Assembly: GCA_003144275.1 (NCBI GenBank)
Contig: NJBF01000001.1
Coordinates: 161,902 to 193,901, forward strand
DNA: 32,000 nt
Source: Candidatus Heimdallarchaeota archaeon B3_Heim
Lineage (GTDB): Archaea > Asgardarchaeota > Heimdallarchaeia > Hodarchaeales > Hodarchaeaceae
Direction of reading: 5' to 3'
Positions 13,899-22,353 of this stretch are shown here, one piece after another; the first letter of the stretch is position 1, and the number at the start of each line of letters is the position of its first letter. Both the position numbers and the translations under genes were made by a program. The notes beneath the pieces were generated by a model. That model was not told where the DNA came from and did not search any database. It was given only the letters and a program-made list of their open reading frames with translations.

Positions 13899-14648
13899 TT
13901 ATACTCCAAATTCAGATGGACGAATTTTTACCTGCTCGGTCAGGTCTTCTAAAAGCATTTTTACTTTTTCTGTTTGAGTCGTACTCCCCACTTTGACATA
14001 TTTTTCATGAGCCTTAACTAAAAGATCTATTGCTTCTTTCATGTTTTCTCTTGCGCTAATGAGTGATTTAGCACGACTATATAACGCAAGAGCCTCATAT
14101 CGAGTTGCGTCTTCCCTACCCTTCTTGAATTCCTCAACAGCTCTTTCTAAATAGTACGCTTTGTCAAAATCTGATTCCATGGCTGCAGCGCGTTGTACAA
14201 AAGAACGGGCGCGTGCCTTTGCAGCTTCCAATTCAAGTCCAGTTGTCGAATAAAGCGCACCCGCAGATTCAAATAAACGAGCAGATTCAATAAATTCACC
14301 ATTTTTTGCCTTAAGAATCGCTAATTCACCTTGAGTCTGAGCTTGAACCGTTCTTGCGTGTTTGGCCTCGTCTAAAAAACCCTCTGTCGAAAAAATTACG
14401 TTGGCTTTTCCAAAAGAGCGAATTGCTTTCAAAAAATTCGTTTCAATCATATCAGTGTACCCATATGCACAGAGTCTGAACGCTTCGGCTCTTTTACTCA
14501 ACTTTTTTTCATCCCCATCGTGGAAAAACTTTGAAGATCTCTTAAAATTCTCAACAGCCTCCTTATATCGTTGAGTTTCATAATAAGCCATGCCTTGATC
14601 GAACTGTTTTTGACCTTTCTTAATTTTACTTCCCTTGAATAATACCAT
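13899..14648 (-). CDS. TPR/helical-repeat protein
   Basis: Repeated helical pattern (e.g. GMAYYETQRYKEAVENFKRS, AARLFESAGALY). ATG at 14648 is preferred. Confidence 0.75.
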   Translation of the reverse strand: MVLFKGSKIKKGQKQFDQGMAYYETQRYKEAVENFKRSSKFFHDGDEKKLSKRAEAFRLCAYGYTDMIETNFLKAIRSFGKANVIFSTEGFLDEAKHARTVQAQTQGELAILKAKNGEFIESARLFESAGALYSTTGLELEAAKARARSFVQRAAAMESDFDKAYYLERAVEEFKKGREDATRYEALALYSRAKSLISARENMKEAIDLLVKAHEKYVKVGSTTQTEKVKMLLEDLTEQVKIRPSEFGV

Positions 14649-14920
14649 TAAAAGTAACTCCACAAATAAAGTAAAGCCCATAATAAGTGCTAATAATCAC
14701 AGAATAATTATTACTGAAGATTATTTCTCTTCAATAATCCCGTCAAACATAATAATGATTAATTTTTCTAATAAAGCTTCGCAAAGAGAATTTGAAAATT
14801 ATTAACAAAATTTTCTTTTTGGATTTATATATAGATTCTTGGAAAACTTAAAGAAATTTTGTAAAATGCCTATATGAAGAAGGAAGTACAATCATTTTCT
14901 TTTCAACATGACTAAATTTG

Positions 14921-16186
14921 TCAGACAACTTTGGAAATAAAGTTCTGGACAGGATGAGTCACATATCCGCTATCCGGCAGGCCCGACACCATAAAAGGTG
15001 TAGGAACCATAGGGACTACTTTAAACTTACATATATACCGTTGAAGAATATTCCGAGCCGCATTGTAATCTGCATTCAGGAAAAACCCACACGCTCGACA
15101 TACGAAGCACCCGCGAGATTTACGATTGCGTTTATCTACACACCCACATTGACTACATTGTTGGGAGGTATAAGCTTCGTCCACACGGACTACAGTCATC
15201 CCAACAAGTTTAGCTTTATATTCGAGCATTTTAACGAATTGAAGAAACGGAAGGTGAACAAAAGACTGGTTAGTTCGCTTTCCTAAGTTACAGTGTTGTT
15301 TCCACAGAGGATTATAGCCAATGATTAGTGTATCAATATTTTGCTGCACACAGTAGGAGATAATCTGCCGAGAGGTTTGATGAAAGACATCACGGAGCCT
15401 ATTCGTCCGAACACGCGAGAGGCGTTGAATCCGACGGGTAGTAACCTGTTGCTTGTGAATGGTAGCTAACGACCGATAATGGGCAAGTTGTTTATTATAC
15501 CACTGATTAATTGCCTTAACTACCCCGCCTTTGACGAGTAACCCGTCTGACGAAGTTACGAGGTTGTTAAGGCTGAGATCTAGCCCCATCGCACGAGGAG
15601 GGGAATCAGAGGTGGGAAAGTGTTGTACTTGCACTTCATACAGAATTTCTACCACAAATCGATCATAAAACGGAACTAAACGGGCACCGACACAGGTCTC
15701 GGCAGTAAGAGGCAGTGTTCCCAGCAGGAAGGTGGGAAACCCGCGAAGCATGAGATTTCGAGCAAACAGAATCTGGTTCTCACGGATTCGGACCCGAGGG
15801 CGGGGAAAGTTCAACATATGGAGCCCATTTTTGGGTTTATACCCTGGGATTCGGGGGCGACTCTGAAACTTGGTTGGATCTTTCTTCCACGCTTTTAACC
15901 CATTAAAAAAGCTCCGCCAGGTTTGTTCTACCTGCCGTAGAACTTGTTGGGGAAGGTAACTATCGGAGAGGGTTTTTAAGGCTAAATACACGGGTTCGGC
16001 CTTAAGCTGATGATACAGGGTGGTATATTGCACCCATTTACCTGTCTGAAAGAATGTTTGTCGGACCACATATGTTGCCCGATTGTACAGATTCTTTGCA
16101 CACGCACACAAATCGGTGAAAATTGGCCGTGGTTTCATTTGAATTCGGATGGCCAACTGTGGATGAGGGTGTTTTTTGGTACGCAT
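14921..16186 (-). CDS. tnpB: RNA-guided endonuclease TnpB (InsQ/IS200-IS605/IS607 OrfB family)
   Basis: AKNLYN…QQVLRQV, RuvC-I GLDLSLNN, IIGYN, VDEAYTS, zinc finger CSQC/CRAC and RuvC-III NADYNAARNI. Confidence 0.95.
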   Translation of the reverse strand: MRTKKHPHPQLAIRIQMKPRPIFTDLCACAKNLYNRATYVVRQTFFQTGKWVQYTTLYHQLKAEPVYLALKTLSDSYLPQQVLRQVEQTWRSFFNGLKAWKKDPTKFQSRPRIPGYKPKNGLHMLNFPRPRVRIRENQILFARNLMLRGFPTFLLGTLPLTAETCVGARLVPFYDRFVVEILYEVQVQHFPTSDSPPRAMGLDLSLNNLVTSSDGLLVKGGVVKAINQWYNKQLAHYRSLATIHKQQVTTRRIQRLSRVRTNRLRDVFHQTSRQIISYCVQQNIDTLIIGYNPLWKQHCNLGKRTNQSFVHLPFLQFVKMLEYKAKLVGMTVVRVDEAYTSQQCSQCGCVDKRNRKSRGCFVCRACGFFLNADYNAARNILQRYICKFKVVPMVPTPFMVSGLPDSGYVTHPVQNFISKVV

Positions 16187-16225
16187 TCCCACCTCATTGT
16201 GAGTCCTCGTGTTTATAACTTTACA

Positions 16226-16240
16226 AGAGAGAGAGAGAGA
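16226..16240. repeat. (AG)7 dinucleotide microsatellite
   Basis: AGAGAGAGAGAGAGA read directly, upstream of tnpB. Confidence 0.9.
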
Positions 16241-16601
16241 TTCATGAAAGTGGCGAATGTAGTGAAAATGAGGCTGATTTTGGTCTGAAGAGAACTTTTA
16301 TATTTCGTTGTCAGACAAATTCAACATGTAATCCCGAGGAAAAGTATCTCTGAAAGGAAAAAATACATACATTTTCACCTTTAAGCGATTTAAAGGCAAG
16401 AATAGATGTATAAAGCTGGTAACCTACATTCTATTATTAATAAATTGATATAAAAACTCCTTAATAGAATAAGGCAACATTAATTAATACAGGATTATAT
16501 AAAACGACTATAAGGAGTGTATCTTCACTAATGACTCAAATCTTAGGATAGCAGGCACTCCGACTTTTATCTGGGTTTTAATCAACACTCTGGTTGGTGA
16601 A

Positions 16602-19600
16602 TTGAAATTGTCAATACAAAATAAACGCTTATCACCGTTTTATTCAGTTTTACTTATAGTTCCTCTCTTAATCATGTCCTCCCTTTTATTACCCTTCGTT
16701 GGTATTATTCTTCCTCAGGAGAAGCAATCAGCAGGACATTACATTACTTCTTTACGTGATCCCGACCTTGACACAAATCCACTTCCCCAATCAGGAATTT
16801 ATCGTAATAAAGATTCACAAAACTCTCCTTATTACTCAATTGCTGAAATTGAACCAAATAAAGCAATTTATTTCCCTGAAGAAACAATAAGTGTTGCTAA
16901 TCGCTTCAATAGCGCTCAAACTGGGAGTTATGCGATTGTTTCTCAAGTTATCTATCTATATCTAAATAGTAGTACAATTACAAACCTTTCCGACACCACA
17001 CATCTTATTGCAACAACGGTGACTAACGGCACACATGCAAAGGATTATCCGGCCATCTCAGACGATCAAACTTATGGAATGATAGATGTAACATTTACAA
17101 TCCCAGAAATGACAAATTTAACCAACAGATATGGTATTTCACCCGGAGATAATGTATCAATTTTTCAATACTATCCTGGAGGTAGTACAAATACAACAGC
17201 GAAAATAGAAAATGTTGTAGCTTTCGCGAAAATTGATTATTTTACTGTTAGTGGATTTTCAACACTAACCGAAGTAAATCCAGGATTCATAAATACTGCC
17301 AGTGGTGATGAGACTTTTCGTCAGGGAGAGGAGGCAAGTGTTGTTCTTAAGGCTCAATCGGGTACCACACCATTATCAGGACTTATTGTAGATGTTAAAC
17401 TCCATGATGGGACCACACATACCCTAATATCAAACGGGGGCCCTCAGGGAATTAGCTATAATCTTCTCGATATGACCACAGGATTACCCAGTACGACAAC
17501 AAATGGAAATGGTGAGCTACGTCTGAATGTTACAACTACTTATCCAACAACTCCTGAAAACAACTATTATTTTGTTCTTAACACAACAATTGATCCGCTC
17601 TCTGGATACTTCACAGAGAATTATGACGGAAGTAATGCTGTAACAAATTATGCAGACAGTCATGCTAATTTCACTATTGAGAATGAAATGGATATTGCAG
17701 TTGTTGAGCTTGTTTCTGTGAATCCTTCATCTCCGATAGCTCCGCCTAATGAAAACTATACTCTTGTTACATTTAGAGTAGATTTATTTTATGCATATTC
17801 TAGTGATATTTACCAAGTTGCAGGGATCTTTGTTAATGCAACTTTGGATTCATACCCAACAGGCGTAAATCTAAAATTTGCAGATGATTTCAATGACAAT
17901 AGCTCTGGGTGGGCGGCGACGAATGCAAGTGGAATGATTCAATTCAATATTACGGCAGGGTTTCCTATTCCCTATCAATTAAAAACTCCTACAATCACTG
18001 TAGTTGCTGATTTACAACATAATAATGCGCCAGCAGGTTCTTACCCGAGTAGTTATCCAAATAATCCCCACCGATTTATCAGAAGCACAGGAGGCATGTT
18101 AACAGTTTCTTCAGCGGGTGATACAATTAGTATCGATCCCGATTTTTGGGTTGGTTTAATCAGCTTAAATTCAATTACTTCAACAAACATTCGGCCAGGA
18201 GAGTCCACAACTCTTGTATTTGAAGTAAATACAACCTCTGCACCACTAGTTGATTTTTCAGGTGTGCCAGTAAAGATTGAATTAAACCCATCAATAGCGG
18301 GAGTGTCGTTAACATTTACTAATCCTCAAAATACTCCATACAGTATTTATGGGTATCGGTATACCAATTCAAGTGGAATGATTGAAGTAACAGTCGATAC
18401 TACCTATTTAACTACGCCAGAATTTATTCCCCCTCAATCCGTAAATCTTGACTTAACGGTCGATTTTGAGAATGATTCACAGGCTCGATGGATTGGTACA
18501 CAACATTTGGGTACAACCACTTTAGCAGAATTCAATACCACCTGGTTAACTTCACAGGATGCTAGTTTATCTATTGATCCGAACTTTACATTCTATGAAA
18601 TTATACTCGCCTCGACCAATGAATCTGGAGATACTGTGATACGTTCTGGAGATATTCTGGAAATTAATTTCCGAGTTCAATCAAAAGTAGGAGGAATTGG
18701 TCTAGCAGGAGTTGATGTGAATGTTCTTCTAGGAGGAGCATACGCAGGTGTGACTTTGCTAGGAGGATTATCTACTACCAATGGATCTGGATATGTTACT
18801 GTTAATTTATCTACAACTTATCTGATAACCCCAAAAGATCTTGACATTGTACTCAATGCCACAGCTGACTTAACTTCTGATCCTGGAGTCTGGTTAGTAG
18901 GCCAAAAGTCAACCAATCCAAGTTTTTATTCAAATAGCTCGTATTCAGACGTTGAGGAAATAATTCAAGTTGATCCACAGTACTTCTTTGGAGAAATTAC
19001 TGCTCCTCCCGCAAACAACCCCATCTCAAGGATTGGCCAAACTGATGAAATTAATATCACCTTTAGACTACATTTAAGCGGAGAAGGAACTGTATTTCCA
19101 GATATTAACGATGTAAATATCTCCATTACTGTAGATGGCAATCTCCCTGGAGATTCCAACATGACTGTTCTTCCAGGAGCAAGTTTTCAAGATTCGGTTA
19201 GTAGTTGGGTCACATTTTCCCTTCGACCAACAGAAAACACTACTGAAAAATGGTATACTGTCAACGCTACAGCGCACTTCGGAGATGCTCAGGGATTAGT
19301 GTATAATATCACCACCCATTCCTCTGTGCCATCAAGACAGTTATCAGGTGTGTGGGTTAATGGTTCTCATACAAATGATATTTCCTTCACCACATTCGCT
19401 TTTGAAGTTAAAAATGTAGATCGAATCCAAATTTCAAGTCAAGATATCTCAGACGTAACACATACAGGTGTAGATGCACCAGGTTTGAATGTCTCAACTG
19501 GATATTATGAAATATATAGAGGAACGACTTATATCAATATTTCTGGCAGTTATTACGATCCAGTTGCAACTTTAGGCCTTCCTTCTACCCCTGTAAGAAT

Positions 19601-21701
19601 TTCCTTCAATTGGACCAATCTTGCTATGCAACCACAAACTTCTACTTTAGCAAATGTCACTACAGATGGCAATGGTGAATTTTGGGCTAATATTAGTATA
19701 CCTACATCTATTCCTTTGCAAGATATTCAAATTTACGGTTGGGATCCCGCCTTTCCTACCCCTCAAGAAAATCGCAATCCAATCACAAATATTCGACTGA
19801 TGTCTCGGGTCTTTATTCCTAATCATGCGCTCATTGGATACAATGGTAATGCAATTTTTGTTGGAGAAAACGTAACTTCAGCTGGAACTGTTCGAGACGA
19901 TCAAGGGGTAATTGTTAAATCTACTCAATTTATCGGTCTAATCGAGAATATTGGTTGGGATAGTACTCAAGAAGTAGGAACTGCTATTTCTGGAAGCCTA
20001 TCTTCGGGAAGTTTTTCATTAGATTATCAAATTCCGAATGATTACGCATTAGACGTAATTGCCATTAGAGCTAATGTTATTTGGGGAGCAGGACTAGTTA
20101 ATTACAGACCTCGAATATTCCAACTCTGGGTTAACATTTATAACGAGATCAATATATCTTCGTTCGAAATTTACCTCCCTGCTAACCGTTCTACAATATC
20201 TATAGTGAACGGTAGCACGTATGATATCCCTGGGGATTTGCATCGCCAAATATATATCTCAGGGAATTTAATTGATCAAAATAATAGTGGATTGAATGGT
20301 AAAGACATTAATGAAGCCTGGAATGGCACTGGTGTCACCATTACAAGCGGGGGAGGAGGATTTTTCAATCTTAGCTATGACTTTACTGGATTTACTAATG
20401 TCACTTGGATCTGGGGTTTCTCTCATACTCTAGATAATGGAACCACACTACCCACCACTTTCATTGTAACCTTCAGCTGGATTGCCGTAGATGACACAGC
20501 ACCTTTTATTACAATTAACTCTCCCTCAACTAATCAGACTGTAGCAATAGCCAATATTTCAACAACTCTAATAGAGGTTGATATAATTGACCCAGATAAT
20601 AGTACTGGTCCTGGTTATGTTTCACTTGGGCTAAATACGAGTTCAGTTACCATCACCATTAATGGTACAAGTACCACAATGCTGAATACAGTTGGATCAT
20701 TATTCACTTATGATTGGGACACATCAAATGTAAACGACACAAAATTCTTTATCTCGATTACTGCAATGGATTATGCAGGTAATCTTAGAAATAGCTCATT
20801 TTATGTAGTTATTGATGTAATTCTCCCTACAGCAACTATTAATGTGGTATCCACCACTGTAGACACTACTGTTTACGCAGTAATGAATGAAAACGGGGAT
20901 ATATTTATTTCAGGTAATCTATCCGACTCTAGTTCCAGTACAGGTCGCAATAGTGACATAGATAGTTCCAGCATACAATTAATTATCCGACCCCAAGGTG
21001 GTGCAGCAGTTTTAACATTGAATTCAGTTGATCTCAACGCTAATTCAAATTCCTATTATTATGCCTGGAATATTTTCAATGTTACCTCAAGATTACGTGA
21101 TCCTGATTTCAAATTGGACGAACTCAATTGGGAGTTGGTCTTATCATTAACAGATTATGCGGGAAATATTTATCAAACAATAGGAACTGTAGTATTAGAA
21201 AATGAAAACCCTGGGCTTTTCCCGATTGTGGGGCCTCCCTCACAAATTAGTGAAGGCACCTTTGATCTTATGGTTTCGTATTTTGATATTAAAAGTGGAA
21301 TAAATGAAGATCTTCTAAATTTTACACTCCATGATGCTGCTGATGGTACACTTCTCCAAACCTATAATTCTAATGCTGCTGAAGTAACCTTGATAGCTGG
21401 AACAAATGCTAGTCTAACTTTGAATGCCAATGATTTGAATGATGGACAATATTATGTACGTGTAACAGTTTATGATAATGTAGGTAATTTTGCACCAGCG
21501 CAATCTTCTGATTTCAGCATTCTACACCCAATAACCACTACATCTGCCCCTCCAACTACAACAACCACATCTCCAAGTGGTCCTGGTGTATTACGCCCAA
21601 TTGACCTTATTCAGTTTCTCCTACTCGACATTATAGCCCTAGGCAGTGGAATTGGAATTGCAGTTATCTTTGAAAGAGTAAAATCTAGACGAAAAGCTTA
21701 G
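16602..21701 (+). CDS. Giant membrane-anchored surface (glyco)protein with tandem Ig-like domains, 1699 aa
   Basis: N-terminal hydrophobic signal/TM segment. Recurrent T(N/D)xxG and DxAGN/DNVGN Ig-like motifs and many N-x-S/T sequons. Thr/Pro-rich linker, C-terminal TM segment and basic tail. Confidence 0.85.
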   Translation: MKLSIQNKRLSPFYSVLLIVPLLIMSSLLLPFVGIILPQEKQSAGHYITSLRDPDLDTNPLPQSGIYRNKDSQNSPYYSIAEIEPNKAIYFPEETISVANRFNSAQTGSYAIVSQVIYLYLNSSTITNLSDTTHLIATTVTNGTHAKDYPAISDDQTYGMIDVTFTIPEMTNLTNRYGISPGDNVSIFQYYPGGSTNTTAKIENVVAFAKIDYFTVSGFSTLTEVNPGFINTASGDETFRQGEEASVVLKAQSGTTPLSGLIVDVKLHDGTTHTLISNGGPQGISYNLLDMTTGLPSTTTNGNGELRLNVTTTYPTTPENNYYFVLNTTIDPLSGYFTENYDGSNAVTNYADSHANFTIENEMDIAVVELVSVNPSSPIAPPNENYTLVTFRVDLFYAYSSDIYQVAGIFVNATLDSYPTGVNLKFADDFNDNSSGWAATNASGMIQFNITAGFPIPYQLKTPTITVVADLQHNNAPAGSYPSSYPNNPHRFIRSTGGMLTVSSAGDTISIDPDFWVGLISLNSITSTNIRPGESTTLVFEVNTTSAPLVDFSGVPVKIELNPSIAGVSLTFTNPQNTPYSIYGYRYTNSSGMIEVTVDTTYLTTPEFIPPQSVNLDLTVDFENDSQARWIGTQHLGTTTLAEFNTTWLTSQDASLSIDPNFTFYEIILASTNESGDTVIRSGDILEINFRVQSKVGGIGLAGVDVNVLLGGAYAGVTLLGGLSTTNGSGYVTVNLSTTYLITPKDLDIVLNATADLTSDPGVWLVGQKSTNPSFYSNSSYSDVEEIIQVDPQYFFGEITAPPANNPISRIGQTDEINITFRLHLSGEGTVFPDINDVNISITVDGNLPGDSNMTVLPGASFQDSVSSWVTFSLRPTENTTEKWYTVNATAHFGDAQGLVYNITTHSSVPSRQLSGVWVNGSHTNDISFTTFAFEVKNVDRIQISSQDISDVTHTGVDAPGLNVSTGYYEIYRGTTYINISGSYYDPVATLGLPSTPVRISFNWTNLAMQPQTSTLANVTTDGNGEFWANISIPTSIPLQDIQIYGWDPAFPTPQENRNPITNIRLMSRVFIPNHALIGYNGNAIFVGENVTSAGTVRDDQGVIVKSTQFIGLIENIGWDSTQEVGTAISGSLSSGSFSLDYQIPNDYALDVIAIRANVIWGAGLVNYRPRIFQLWVNIYNEINISSFEIYLPANRSTISIVNGSTYDIPGDLHRQIYISGNLIDQNNSGLNGKDINEAWNGTGVTITSGGGGFFNLSYDFTGFTNVTWIWGFSHTLDNGTTLPTTFIVTFSWIAVDDTAPFITINSPSTNQTVAIANISTTLIEVDIIDPDNSTGPGYVSLGLNTSSVTITINGTSTTMLNTVGSLFTYDWDTSNVNDTKFFISITAMDYAGNLRNSSFYVVIDVILPTATINVVSTTVDTTVYAVMNENGDIFISGNLSDSSSSTGRNSDIDSSSIQLIIRPQGGAAVLTLNSVDLNANSNSYYYAWNIFNVTSRLRDPDFKLDELNWELVLSLTDYAGNIYQTIGTVVLENENPGLFPIVGPPSQISEGTFDLMVSYFDIKSGINEDLLNFTLHDAADGTLLQTYNSNAAEVTLIAGTNASLTLNANDLNDGQYYVRVTVYDNVGNFAPAQSSDFSILHPITTTSAPPTTTTTSPSGPGVLRPIDLIQFLLLDIIALGSGIGIAVIFERVKSRRKA

Positions 21702-21852
21702 AAAAAATTGAAAATTGTAAAAATGATGATAATTGATTTCAGAACAATTATAAGAAAAAAGTATTATGAGGTAAAATCAACCTATTATTTACCAATACCA
21801 AAATAATATATCAAGATATACTTGAATCAGAACTAAATAACAAGACAAATTA

Positions 21853-22353
21853 GTGATAAGAATGAAAGGATTAAATTTCTTTGCTCAGATTGGCCCAGAA
21901 CTTTATATATTTGCTTTTGTTGTGCTAATAGTAGCTAGTGCTTTGGTTTATTACTTCCGTGAAAGAATTATAGACGCGTTAGGAATTACCGCAGCCAAAA
22001 AAACAATTTTGGAACAAGAAATCGAACAACGACTGGTACAAATTAGACAGTTAGCACGACAACAAATGTTTAAGGACGCAGCTGTACTAATGTGGCAGAC
22101 TATGACTCTTGCTTCCGAGGGCTTCCTCGGTGTAGGTCGTGCACCTAATGAATCCGCAAGACAATTAGGTGTTAAACTGATGAACAGAGGTGATCTAGAC
22201 CCTGGCGCAATAAACGCAATTATTGTTGCTTTTGAAAAAGCAAGATACGGTCAAACTCCCTTAACCAATCAAGAATTTAAGGATGGCTTATCAGGCCTGC
22301 ATCAGTTCCTCCAAATGGCTACATCACTTGGAGAAATATCCATCGCAGAATAA
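21853..22353 (+). CDS. DUF4129-like protein with N-terminal TM segment
   Basis: RAPNESARQ…AFEKARYG…LT pattern. Adjacent to DUF4350 and MoxR genes. Confidence 0.75.
   Translation: MIRMKGLNFFAQIGPELYIFAFVVLIVASALVYYFRERIIDALGITAAKKTILEQEIEQRLVQIRQLARQQMFKDAAVLMWQTMTLASEGFLGVGRAPNESARQLGVKLMNRGDLDPGAINAIIVAFEKARYGQTPLTNQEFKDGLSGLHQFLQMATSLGEISIAE

Follow-up and report, generated by a model that had tools for sequence, protein, structure and literature searches.

We analyzed a 32,000-nucleotide stretch of DNA from Candidatus Heimdallarchaeota archaeon B3_Heim (hereafter the window), which lies on contig C57 of the host assembly (G000; 3.9 Mb, 94% complete), and find that positions 14907-16328 probably constitute a non-autonomous insertion sequence that encodes only TnpB, is bounded by terminal inverted repeats (TIRs) of ~23 bp, and moves by IS607-like strand exchange at CATG with a recombinase acting in trans. 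The family to which it belongs is an actively spreading TnpB-only element in Asgard archaea that ends in inverted repeats, targets the palindrome CATG, and has no visible transposase. The translated tnpB gene shows the RuvC D/E/D motifs and a CxxC...CxxC zinc finger, contains the Pfam domains OrfB_IS605 (PF01385) and Cas12f1-like_TNB (PF07282), and scores 223 bits against the NCBIfam guided_TnpB model NF040570. Domain content and RuvC residues thus assign the predicted protein to TnpB, an RNA-guided nuclease family.

An earlier note on this DNA had described inverted arms, a mirrored 8-mer, a stop codon within a palindrome, and a direct 9-mer, and all four are present. The arms at 14915-14929 and 16307-16321 span 15 nt and are 93% complementary; the 8-mer AAAGTTCT at 14939-14946 is mirrored at 16291-16298; and the tnpB stop codon (TCA on the + strand, 14921-23) falls within the palindrome TTGTCAGACAA. 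The note had also set these ends apart from those of IS200/IS605 elements, and this distinction holds across the family. Read in the tnpB orientation, every copy has at its right end a TTGTCnGACAA box, a 7-nt linker, and a CATG beyond which the DNA is unrelated; at every left end, unrelated DNA gives way to CATG, a 6-7-nt linker, and the same box. These ~23-bp ends are found at every copy in G000, in the sister genome G013 (95-98% identical to G000), in G031, and in other Hodarchaeales assemblies; the inverted repeat is therefore far beyond chance, and the family's ends are genuine TIRs. The distal 8-mer is specific to the window's subfamily rather than family-wide. Together with the nine-nucleotide spacer (N9) that precedes it, the 8-mer corresponds to the loop and one arm of a right-end hairpin. 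The stems of this hairpin vary between copies yet stay complementary, and the hairpin at the left end is not conserved.

An exact-pattern search identified 59 family ends in G000, 54 in G013, 25 in G031, 11 in G018, five in G003, three in G004, two in G012, and one in G010, and none in the other 14 genus genomes. The right-end pattern had no match in viral contigs and matched six metagenome contigs, all with mini-elements. Besides the window copy, G000 contains five full or near-full tnpB copies at 70-77% DNA identity and several truncated ones, and further homologues are known at 43-58% identity. About 30 further matches in G000 cover only the last 75-117 nt of the element; these are the right ends of gene-less ~360-bp elements that have the same two ends. 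Still shorter gene-less forms measure 146 bp, and 33 bp with both linkers around a single box. The window element itself has been mobile recently, because its site is empty in G013, where the flanks are contiguous, and a 98% identical copy resides at G013:C179, a site that is in turn empty in G000 (C19). The window copy contributes mainly junction mapping and a clean reciprocal filled/empty pair.

To define the target, we blasted G013 loci against G000 and retrieved the G013 sites of G000 insertions, which gave nine usable filled/empty pairs; the G000 insertions C67 and C69 were not used, as their G013 counterparts were too diverged or contained remnants. Approximately 45 copies in G000, and more in the sister genomes, carry CATG at both ends, and empty sites carry one (C/T)AT(G/A). 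Of the window element's two CATGs, one is the target's. At L045, L047, L056, and L064, the empty site and both sides of the insertion read CATG, and L080 follows the same pattern apart from a right-end CAGG (a later mutation). Three pairs have variant targets. The empty site of L048 reads CATA, with CATG on the left-end side of the insertion and CATA on the right-end side; that of L050 reads TATG, with TAT(T) on the left and CATG on the right; and that of C44 reads TATG, with TATG on the left and CATG on the right. In these variants, the target supplies the outer base of each junction and the element supplies the inner one, which places the exchange at or around the central AT of CATG. Consistent with this, most variants among 78 right ends and 42 left ends fall at the outer positions, including T at position 1 on the left side (four times) and A at position 4 on the right side (six times). 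A 2-bp core and a zero-duplication insertion at CA^TG give the same junction data, which cannot separate the two. The neighboring bases are also biased: position -1 at the left end is A or C in 34 of 42 copies, and position +1 at the right end is A or G in 28 of 38. This asymmetric preference suggests a 5-nt transposon-associated motif (TAM), (A/C)CATG, in the element's frame, and insertion would preferably occur at (A/C)CATG(A/G).

We propose that the element inserts into a single CATG-like site by strand exchange within the tetranucleotide, around its central AT, which would leave CATG at both ends without a true duplication. Such a geometry is closer to the IS607 mechanism than to that of a DDE transposase. 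IS607-type elements move as double-stranded circles, and the short core at their joined ends recombines with the same core in the target; for the window element, the recombinase catalyzing this step would be supplied in trans.

The direct 9-mer TTCAACATG, which reads CATGTTGAA in the tnpB orientation, had been tentatively read as a target site duplication (TSD) made by an IS256/Mutator-type DDE transposase. Four of its nine bases are the family's CATG, and the other five match only here and at one nested insertion. At the right end, CATG is the terminus of the element and TTGAA is host flank, which is present at the empty site (G013:C152). The left-end TTGAA forms the linker joining CATG to the box. 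Since the linker GTTGAAT recurs in six related copies (G013:C179, G000:C8:224, L093 and L094 from Hodarchaeota metagenome-assembled genomes, G031, and G003), this second TTGAA belongs to the element. All subfamily relatives have the 7-nt GTTGAAT, as opposed to the 6-nt TTGAAT of the window copy, and it is the loss of one G from this linker that makes the nine bases contiguous.

We compared the internal 5-mer of 46 elements with the opposite flank, reading each element in both directions (92 comparisons), and found identity at the level seen in shuffled data. By chance, 0.24 5/5 matches are expected in such a set, and 22% of shuffles contain one or more. The single such match in this run is a nested mini-element inserted at the end of another element; the window copy, dropped from the run by the pairing filter, is a second case. 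Two copies of the 9-mer within the window arise in 8 of 100 shuffles. Moreover, the earlier note had looked to other copies and empty alleles for differing 9-bp duplications; in the nine filled/empty pairs and ~45 further copies, only CATG is shared between the two sides, and none shows an 8-9-bp duplication. The 9-mer is thus the family's CATG extended by five bases at which the left-end linker and the host flank agree by chance, and the apparent duplication provides no evidence for a DDE-type mechanism.

The G013 allele of the window site has the length expected without the element and one 9-mer, and differs from the filled site at two bases, reading CTTG then A in place of CATG then T. Although the outgroup G031 aligns poorly at this site, it points to an ancestral flank 5-mer and to an origin of CATG in the G000 lineage. 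We considered that the non-CATG empty alleles at this site and at L082 might be scars that allowed escape from TnpB after excision, and did not adopt this idea because G031 weakly favors one ordinary substitution per lineage.

The conserved 3' end of the element is a putative RNA module. Thirteen diverse copies, some coding and others gene-less, align well over their last ~125 nt, with a consensus fold of 26 base pairs, eight of which show compensatory changes. A search of Rfam returned nothing relevant over window positions 14000-17000. This block fits an omegaRNA scaffold that would end at CATG and take its guide from the flank; in TnpB systems, the guide is reportedly read from the 3' flank (Karvelis 2021; Altae-Tran 2021). 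The segment directly 3' of the right end also occurs at the G013 empty site and is thus host DNA. Most likely, CATG acts as the TAM or target and the right-hand TTGAA begins the guide-encoding flank. A suggestion of the earlier note, that the 9-mer reflects the TAM or guide, is accordingly closer to the truth than its TSD proposal. In our model, the omegaRNA would comprise the last ~120-200 nt of the element with a guide starting TTGAA, and TnpB with this RNA would cut the restored empty site (TAM ...CATG plus guide match), favoring retention of the element. The family sequences would thus supply a TnpB/omegaRNA pair that is compact and has (A/C)CATG as its predicted TAM.

The gene-less derivatives show several further behaviors. 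The ~360-bp copies (in G000, for example, C67:3690-4051, C76:27830-28191, C82:112033-112394, C85:15982-16343, and C23:85682-86046) share a conserved interior, presumed to be an omegaRNA module. At least six G000 copies of one ~360-bp subfamily differ at few positions and their best G013 match is 79% identical, pointing to a very recent burst. The 33-bp forms are near-perfect palindromes (G000 C8:64499-64531, C35:1462-1494, and C50:11147-11179; metagenome loci L181 and L182) that read CATG, linker, single box, linker, CATG, and that either arose by deletion between the two boxes or represent minimal mobile units. At one site, G000 (C8:18882-19240) and G013 (C191:~21722-22083; L078) carry mini-elements of different subfamilies, with the terminal ~25 nt in common and different interiors. 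Beside the mini-element at C85:15982-16343, G000 lacks ~1.2 kb that is present in G013 (C83:20434-21636; L205), perhaps through a deletion next to, and associated with, the element. Finally, the right flank of the mini-element at G000 C82:62618-62978 continues into left-end-like sequence; this copy therefore landed on the terminal CATG of another, degenerate element, and element ends recreate targets.

Our search for the mobilizing enzyme found no Y1, IS607-type, or DDE partner with the family's ends, and no tnpA adjoining a family member. Y1 TnpA (PF01797) is absent from G000 and from 20 of the 22 genus genomes; the Y1 genes of the other two are both degenerate and are paired with a different tnpB family that has no box. 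Using tblastn, five genus IS607 TnpAs and one Y1 had no match in G000, and no Cas1 was found in this genome. Its sole serine recombinase is a Hin-like invertase beside a reverse transcriptase on C2, without a counterpart in the other genus genomes. A repeat census of G000 recovered four other insertion sequences (two DDE_Tnp_1, one DDE_5, and one encoding a 470-aa protein without a Pfam match), whose TIRs are unrelated to the family ends, and a second TnpB-only family, likewise with unrelated ends. All inward-facing pairs of family ends in G000 are spaced 33, 146, ~360, or ~1,420 bp apart, and none of these pairs delimits an element of more than 1.42 kb. An apparent 2.6-kb pair on C8 was rejected as a longer element, as it encloses a host membrane-protease-like gene. 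Metagenome-assembled contigs break inside family copies, for example at G000 C8:1-224 and C82:1-227 and on C75, C96, and C102, so a tnpA-bearing master copy could be systematically unassembled.

These results divide the remaining proposals of the earlier note. Its suggestion of non-standard mobilization is compatible with the lack of an accompanying Y1 TnpA. As to the DDE enzyme it proposed, none of the four DDE insertion sequences of G000 has the same ends. Of the observations that the note said would count against its reading, only half hold: duplications are missing from the other copies, which have a fixed motif in common, but no Y1 or serine TnpA occurs alongside them.

The relatives of the window TnpB that are linked to a TnpA gene point toward IS607. 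The closest, in G013:C54 (37% identity), belongs to a genuine IS607 element with a tnpA that reaches 168 bits against NF033518, the IS607 transposase model, and with ends that have no box. The best match outside Asgard metagenome-assembled genomes (L098, 33% identity) has a serine TnpA directly upstream, and some more distant relatives (27-32% identity) lie near a Y1 gene. As side observations, the tnpA- and tnpB-bearing IS607 element (L188, G013:C54:5509-8919) has its empty site at G000:C14:~21585-21591, and G000 has kept only an 85% identical, tnpA-less and frameshifted derivative of it (G000:C33:15721-16914). The second TnpB-only family in G000 (~1.66 kb; C38:57938-59598, C61:21532-23188, C82:50635-52296, C96:23641-25294, and others) has 7-8 copies with asymmetric ends, encodes a protein with an HTH_OrfB domain that is 22-24% identical to the window TnpB, and likewise has no TnpA in G000. 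The two-copy 1.6-kb element encoding the 470-aa protein (C30:3818-5423 and C31:8610-10215) has ~20-bp TIRs, and its product may be an unclassified transposase. At C2:5629-7440 (L031), a 416-aa open reading frame read from sequence as a reverse transcriptase sits beside the Hin-like invertase on a 7.7-kb contig, possibly as a retron-like or diversity-generating-retroelement-like module, or as contamination.

Overall, the evidence leans toward an IS607-like mechanism because the nearest TnpA-linked relatives are IS607-type and because of the junction geometry. Several points weigh against this assignment. G000 has no IS607-type TnpA, the family-bearing genomes G031 and G003 have no serine recombinase at all, and the IS607 elements of the genus have different ends that lack the box. 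The informative junctions number only three, and the same junction pattern would be expected from a Y1 enzyme that could act on either strand of a symmetric element. In three pairs, both filled junctions read CATG, while the empty alleles are CTTG at the window site, TACG at L082, and TATG at the C57 mini-element. According to PMC6188088, IS607-family elements also lack TIRs. Finally, the sequence comparisons establish the family's structure and ends, its target and mobility, and the lack of a 9-bp TSD, and from them we infer the double-stranded, serine-recombinase-like chemistry and the omegaRNA, TAM, and guide roles.

We think it unlikely that the family is instead moved by a Y1 (HUH) TnpA of the IS200/IS605 type, acting in trans to insert single-stranded DNA 3' of (C/T)ATG, with either strand active and the ends symmetric. 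Elements with tnpB alone (IS1341-type) are classically assigned to IS200/IS605, and the lack of a TSD, the covarying subterminal hairpin at the right end, and the Y1 genes near some distant relatives are all compatible with such an enzyme. Use of either strand would also explain the T at left position 1 and the A at right position 4; L050 and C44 fit insertion 3' of the target as they stand, and L048 fits only if the opposite strand was used. Set against this are the absence of a Y1 gene from G000 and its restriction to degenerate copies elsewhere in the genus, the IS607-type character of the nearest TnpA-linked relatives, and the ends themselves: their 7-nt linkers are mutually reverse complementary, which a same-strand enzyme does not require, and the left-end hairpin is not conserved.

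Similarly tentative, and in our judgment doubtful, is the idea that the family relies on neither of the two classical TnpB partners, its mover being an unrecognized Hodarchaeales recombinase with specificity for the TTGTCnGACAA box and strand exchange at the AT of CATG, or else TnpB itself. If either held, RNA-guided nucleases in the archaeal lineage closest to eukaryotes would have a transposition module of a new kind. TnpB, from which Cas12 and the eukaryotic Fanzors descend, rides on different transposons.

Less probable still is a cut-and-paste enzyme with a 2-bp (AT) or 4-bp stagger at CATG, which would leave a very short true duplication; candidates would be a DDE transposase and a CATG-specific nuclease that works with end-binding proteins. 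Inverted-repeat ends are in keeping with this, as are CATG or AT on both sides of the insertions and once in the empty sites, and the C57 mini-element could be accounted for by a 4-nt overlap followed by mismatch repair. The unequal sides of L048, L050, and C44 contradict a 4-bp TSD, and an AT duplication is indistinguishable from a 2-bp recombination core in these data; no candidate enzyme with the family's ends was found.

It is highly improbable that the TnpB-only element is autonomous, with TnpB catalyzing both excision and integration at CATG, with or without omegaRNA. The recent burst of near-identical mini-copies in G000 without a transposase with matching ends, and the multicopy state of the second TnpB-only family in the same genome, are what this idea has in its favor. 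We know of no precedent for autonomous transposition by TnpB, and the TnpBs that have been studied are not required for transposition. Gene-less copies would still need TnpB in trans, and the contig breaks noted above leave room for a missing master copy.

An IS256/Mutator-type DDE transposase acting in trans can be practically discounted: the true TIRs and exact 9-mer of the window copy, and the known occurrence of TnpB inside TIR-bounded DDE transposons (PMC10691335), are outweighed by the lack of 8-9-bp duplications at other copies, by six related copies in which five of the nine bases lie inside the left end of the element, and by the absence of the family's ends from the four DDE insertion sequences of G000 and from any longer element.

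The coordinates of the window element and its parts are collected in Table 1. The leader between the left end and tnpB, which is retained in mini-elements, may contain an archaeal promoter, judging from its motifs. Next to the element, a 1,699-aa open reading frame occupies window positions 16602-21701 (+), starting ~270 bp from the element's left end.

Table 1. Features of the TnpB-only element and its flanks in the window.
Feature	Position	Strand	Basis
Whole element including CATG at both ends, 1,422 bp	14907..16328	-	Similarity between copies begins and stops at the CATGs
tnpB, 423 aa, GTG start, in-frame ATG two codons later	14921..16192	-	Translation
Right-end TIR: box TTGTCnGACAA, 7-nt linker, CATG; tnpB stop inside	14907..14929	-	Kept at all right ends
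Left-end TIR: CATG, 6-nt linker TTGAAT (tnpB orientation), box	16307..16328	-	Copy alignments
Right-end hairpin, 6-bp stem, 6-nt loop	14927..14944	-	Stems vary between copies, complementarity kept
Conserved 3' block, also in gene-less mini-elements; putative omegaRNA scaffold, overlaps 3' end of tnpB	14907..15030	-	75-117 nt in ~30 non-coding copies
Host flank directly 3' of right end; putative guide-encoding segment starting TTGAA	14887..14906	-	TnpB biology; present at G013 empty site
Leader, left end to tnpB: (CT)n run and TTATAA-like box ~30 nt before start codon	16205..16245	-	Conserved in left-end alignments
Left 9-mer copy: 5 nt host flank and right-end CATG	14902..14910	+	Copy and empty-site comparison
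Right 9-mer copy: 5 nt element-internal left-end linker and CATG	16320..16328	+	Copy comparison

Published partners of TnpB include Y1, serine, DDE, and tyrosine-recombinase enzymes and Asgard Cas1, along with solo TnpBs that have borrowed ends (PMC10691335). The symmetric inverted repeats around TnpB in our family recall the TIR-bounded DDE transposons and solo TnpBs with DDE-type ends described by Altae-Tran et al. (2023; PMC10691335), the latter presumably mobilized in trans. Here, however, there is neither a DDE partner with the same TIRs in G000 nor a DDE-type TSD; an 8-9-bp duplication at each insertion, as in IS256/Mutator-like elements, is missing.

The IS1341 group of IS200/IS605 and its PATE derivatives, for example in haloarchaea (PMC3119063), resemble the family in carrying only tnpB, lacking a TSD, having a subterminal hairpin at the right end, giving rise to many gene-less derivatives, and being mobile without an intact tnpA in the genome. 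The family differs from this group in its true TIRs and symmetric linkers, in a crossover that probably falls inside the target tetranucleotide rather than 3' of the target, and in having no Y1 partner in the lineage. Both the Y1 HUH TnpA, in the element or the genome, and the asymmetric ends without inverted repeats that mark IS200/IS605 are thus missing.

The IS607 family (IS607 and ISXfa1, with a serine TnpA and TnpB) shares with our family the lack of a target duplication, a short identical core at both ends that is present once in the target, a nearly fixed first flanking base, and a tnpB 3' end at the element's right end. IS607 inserts at a dinucleotide (PMC10711439); its core is GG, whereas the core of our family is AT within the palindromic CATG. 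Crossover at a shared core without a TSD is borne out by the three informative junctions. The helix-turn-helix serine-recombinase TnpA of IS607 elements is missing from the element, from G000, and from the neighborhood of every family member, and the ~23-bp inverted repeats around a palindromic box contrast with the non-inverted ends given in the definition of the IS607 family (PMC6188088). Taken together, the family behaves most like IS607, yet it falls outside IS607, IS200/IS605, and the DDE families as these are defined.

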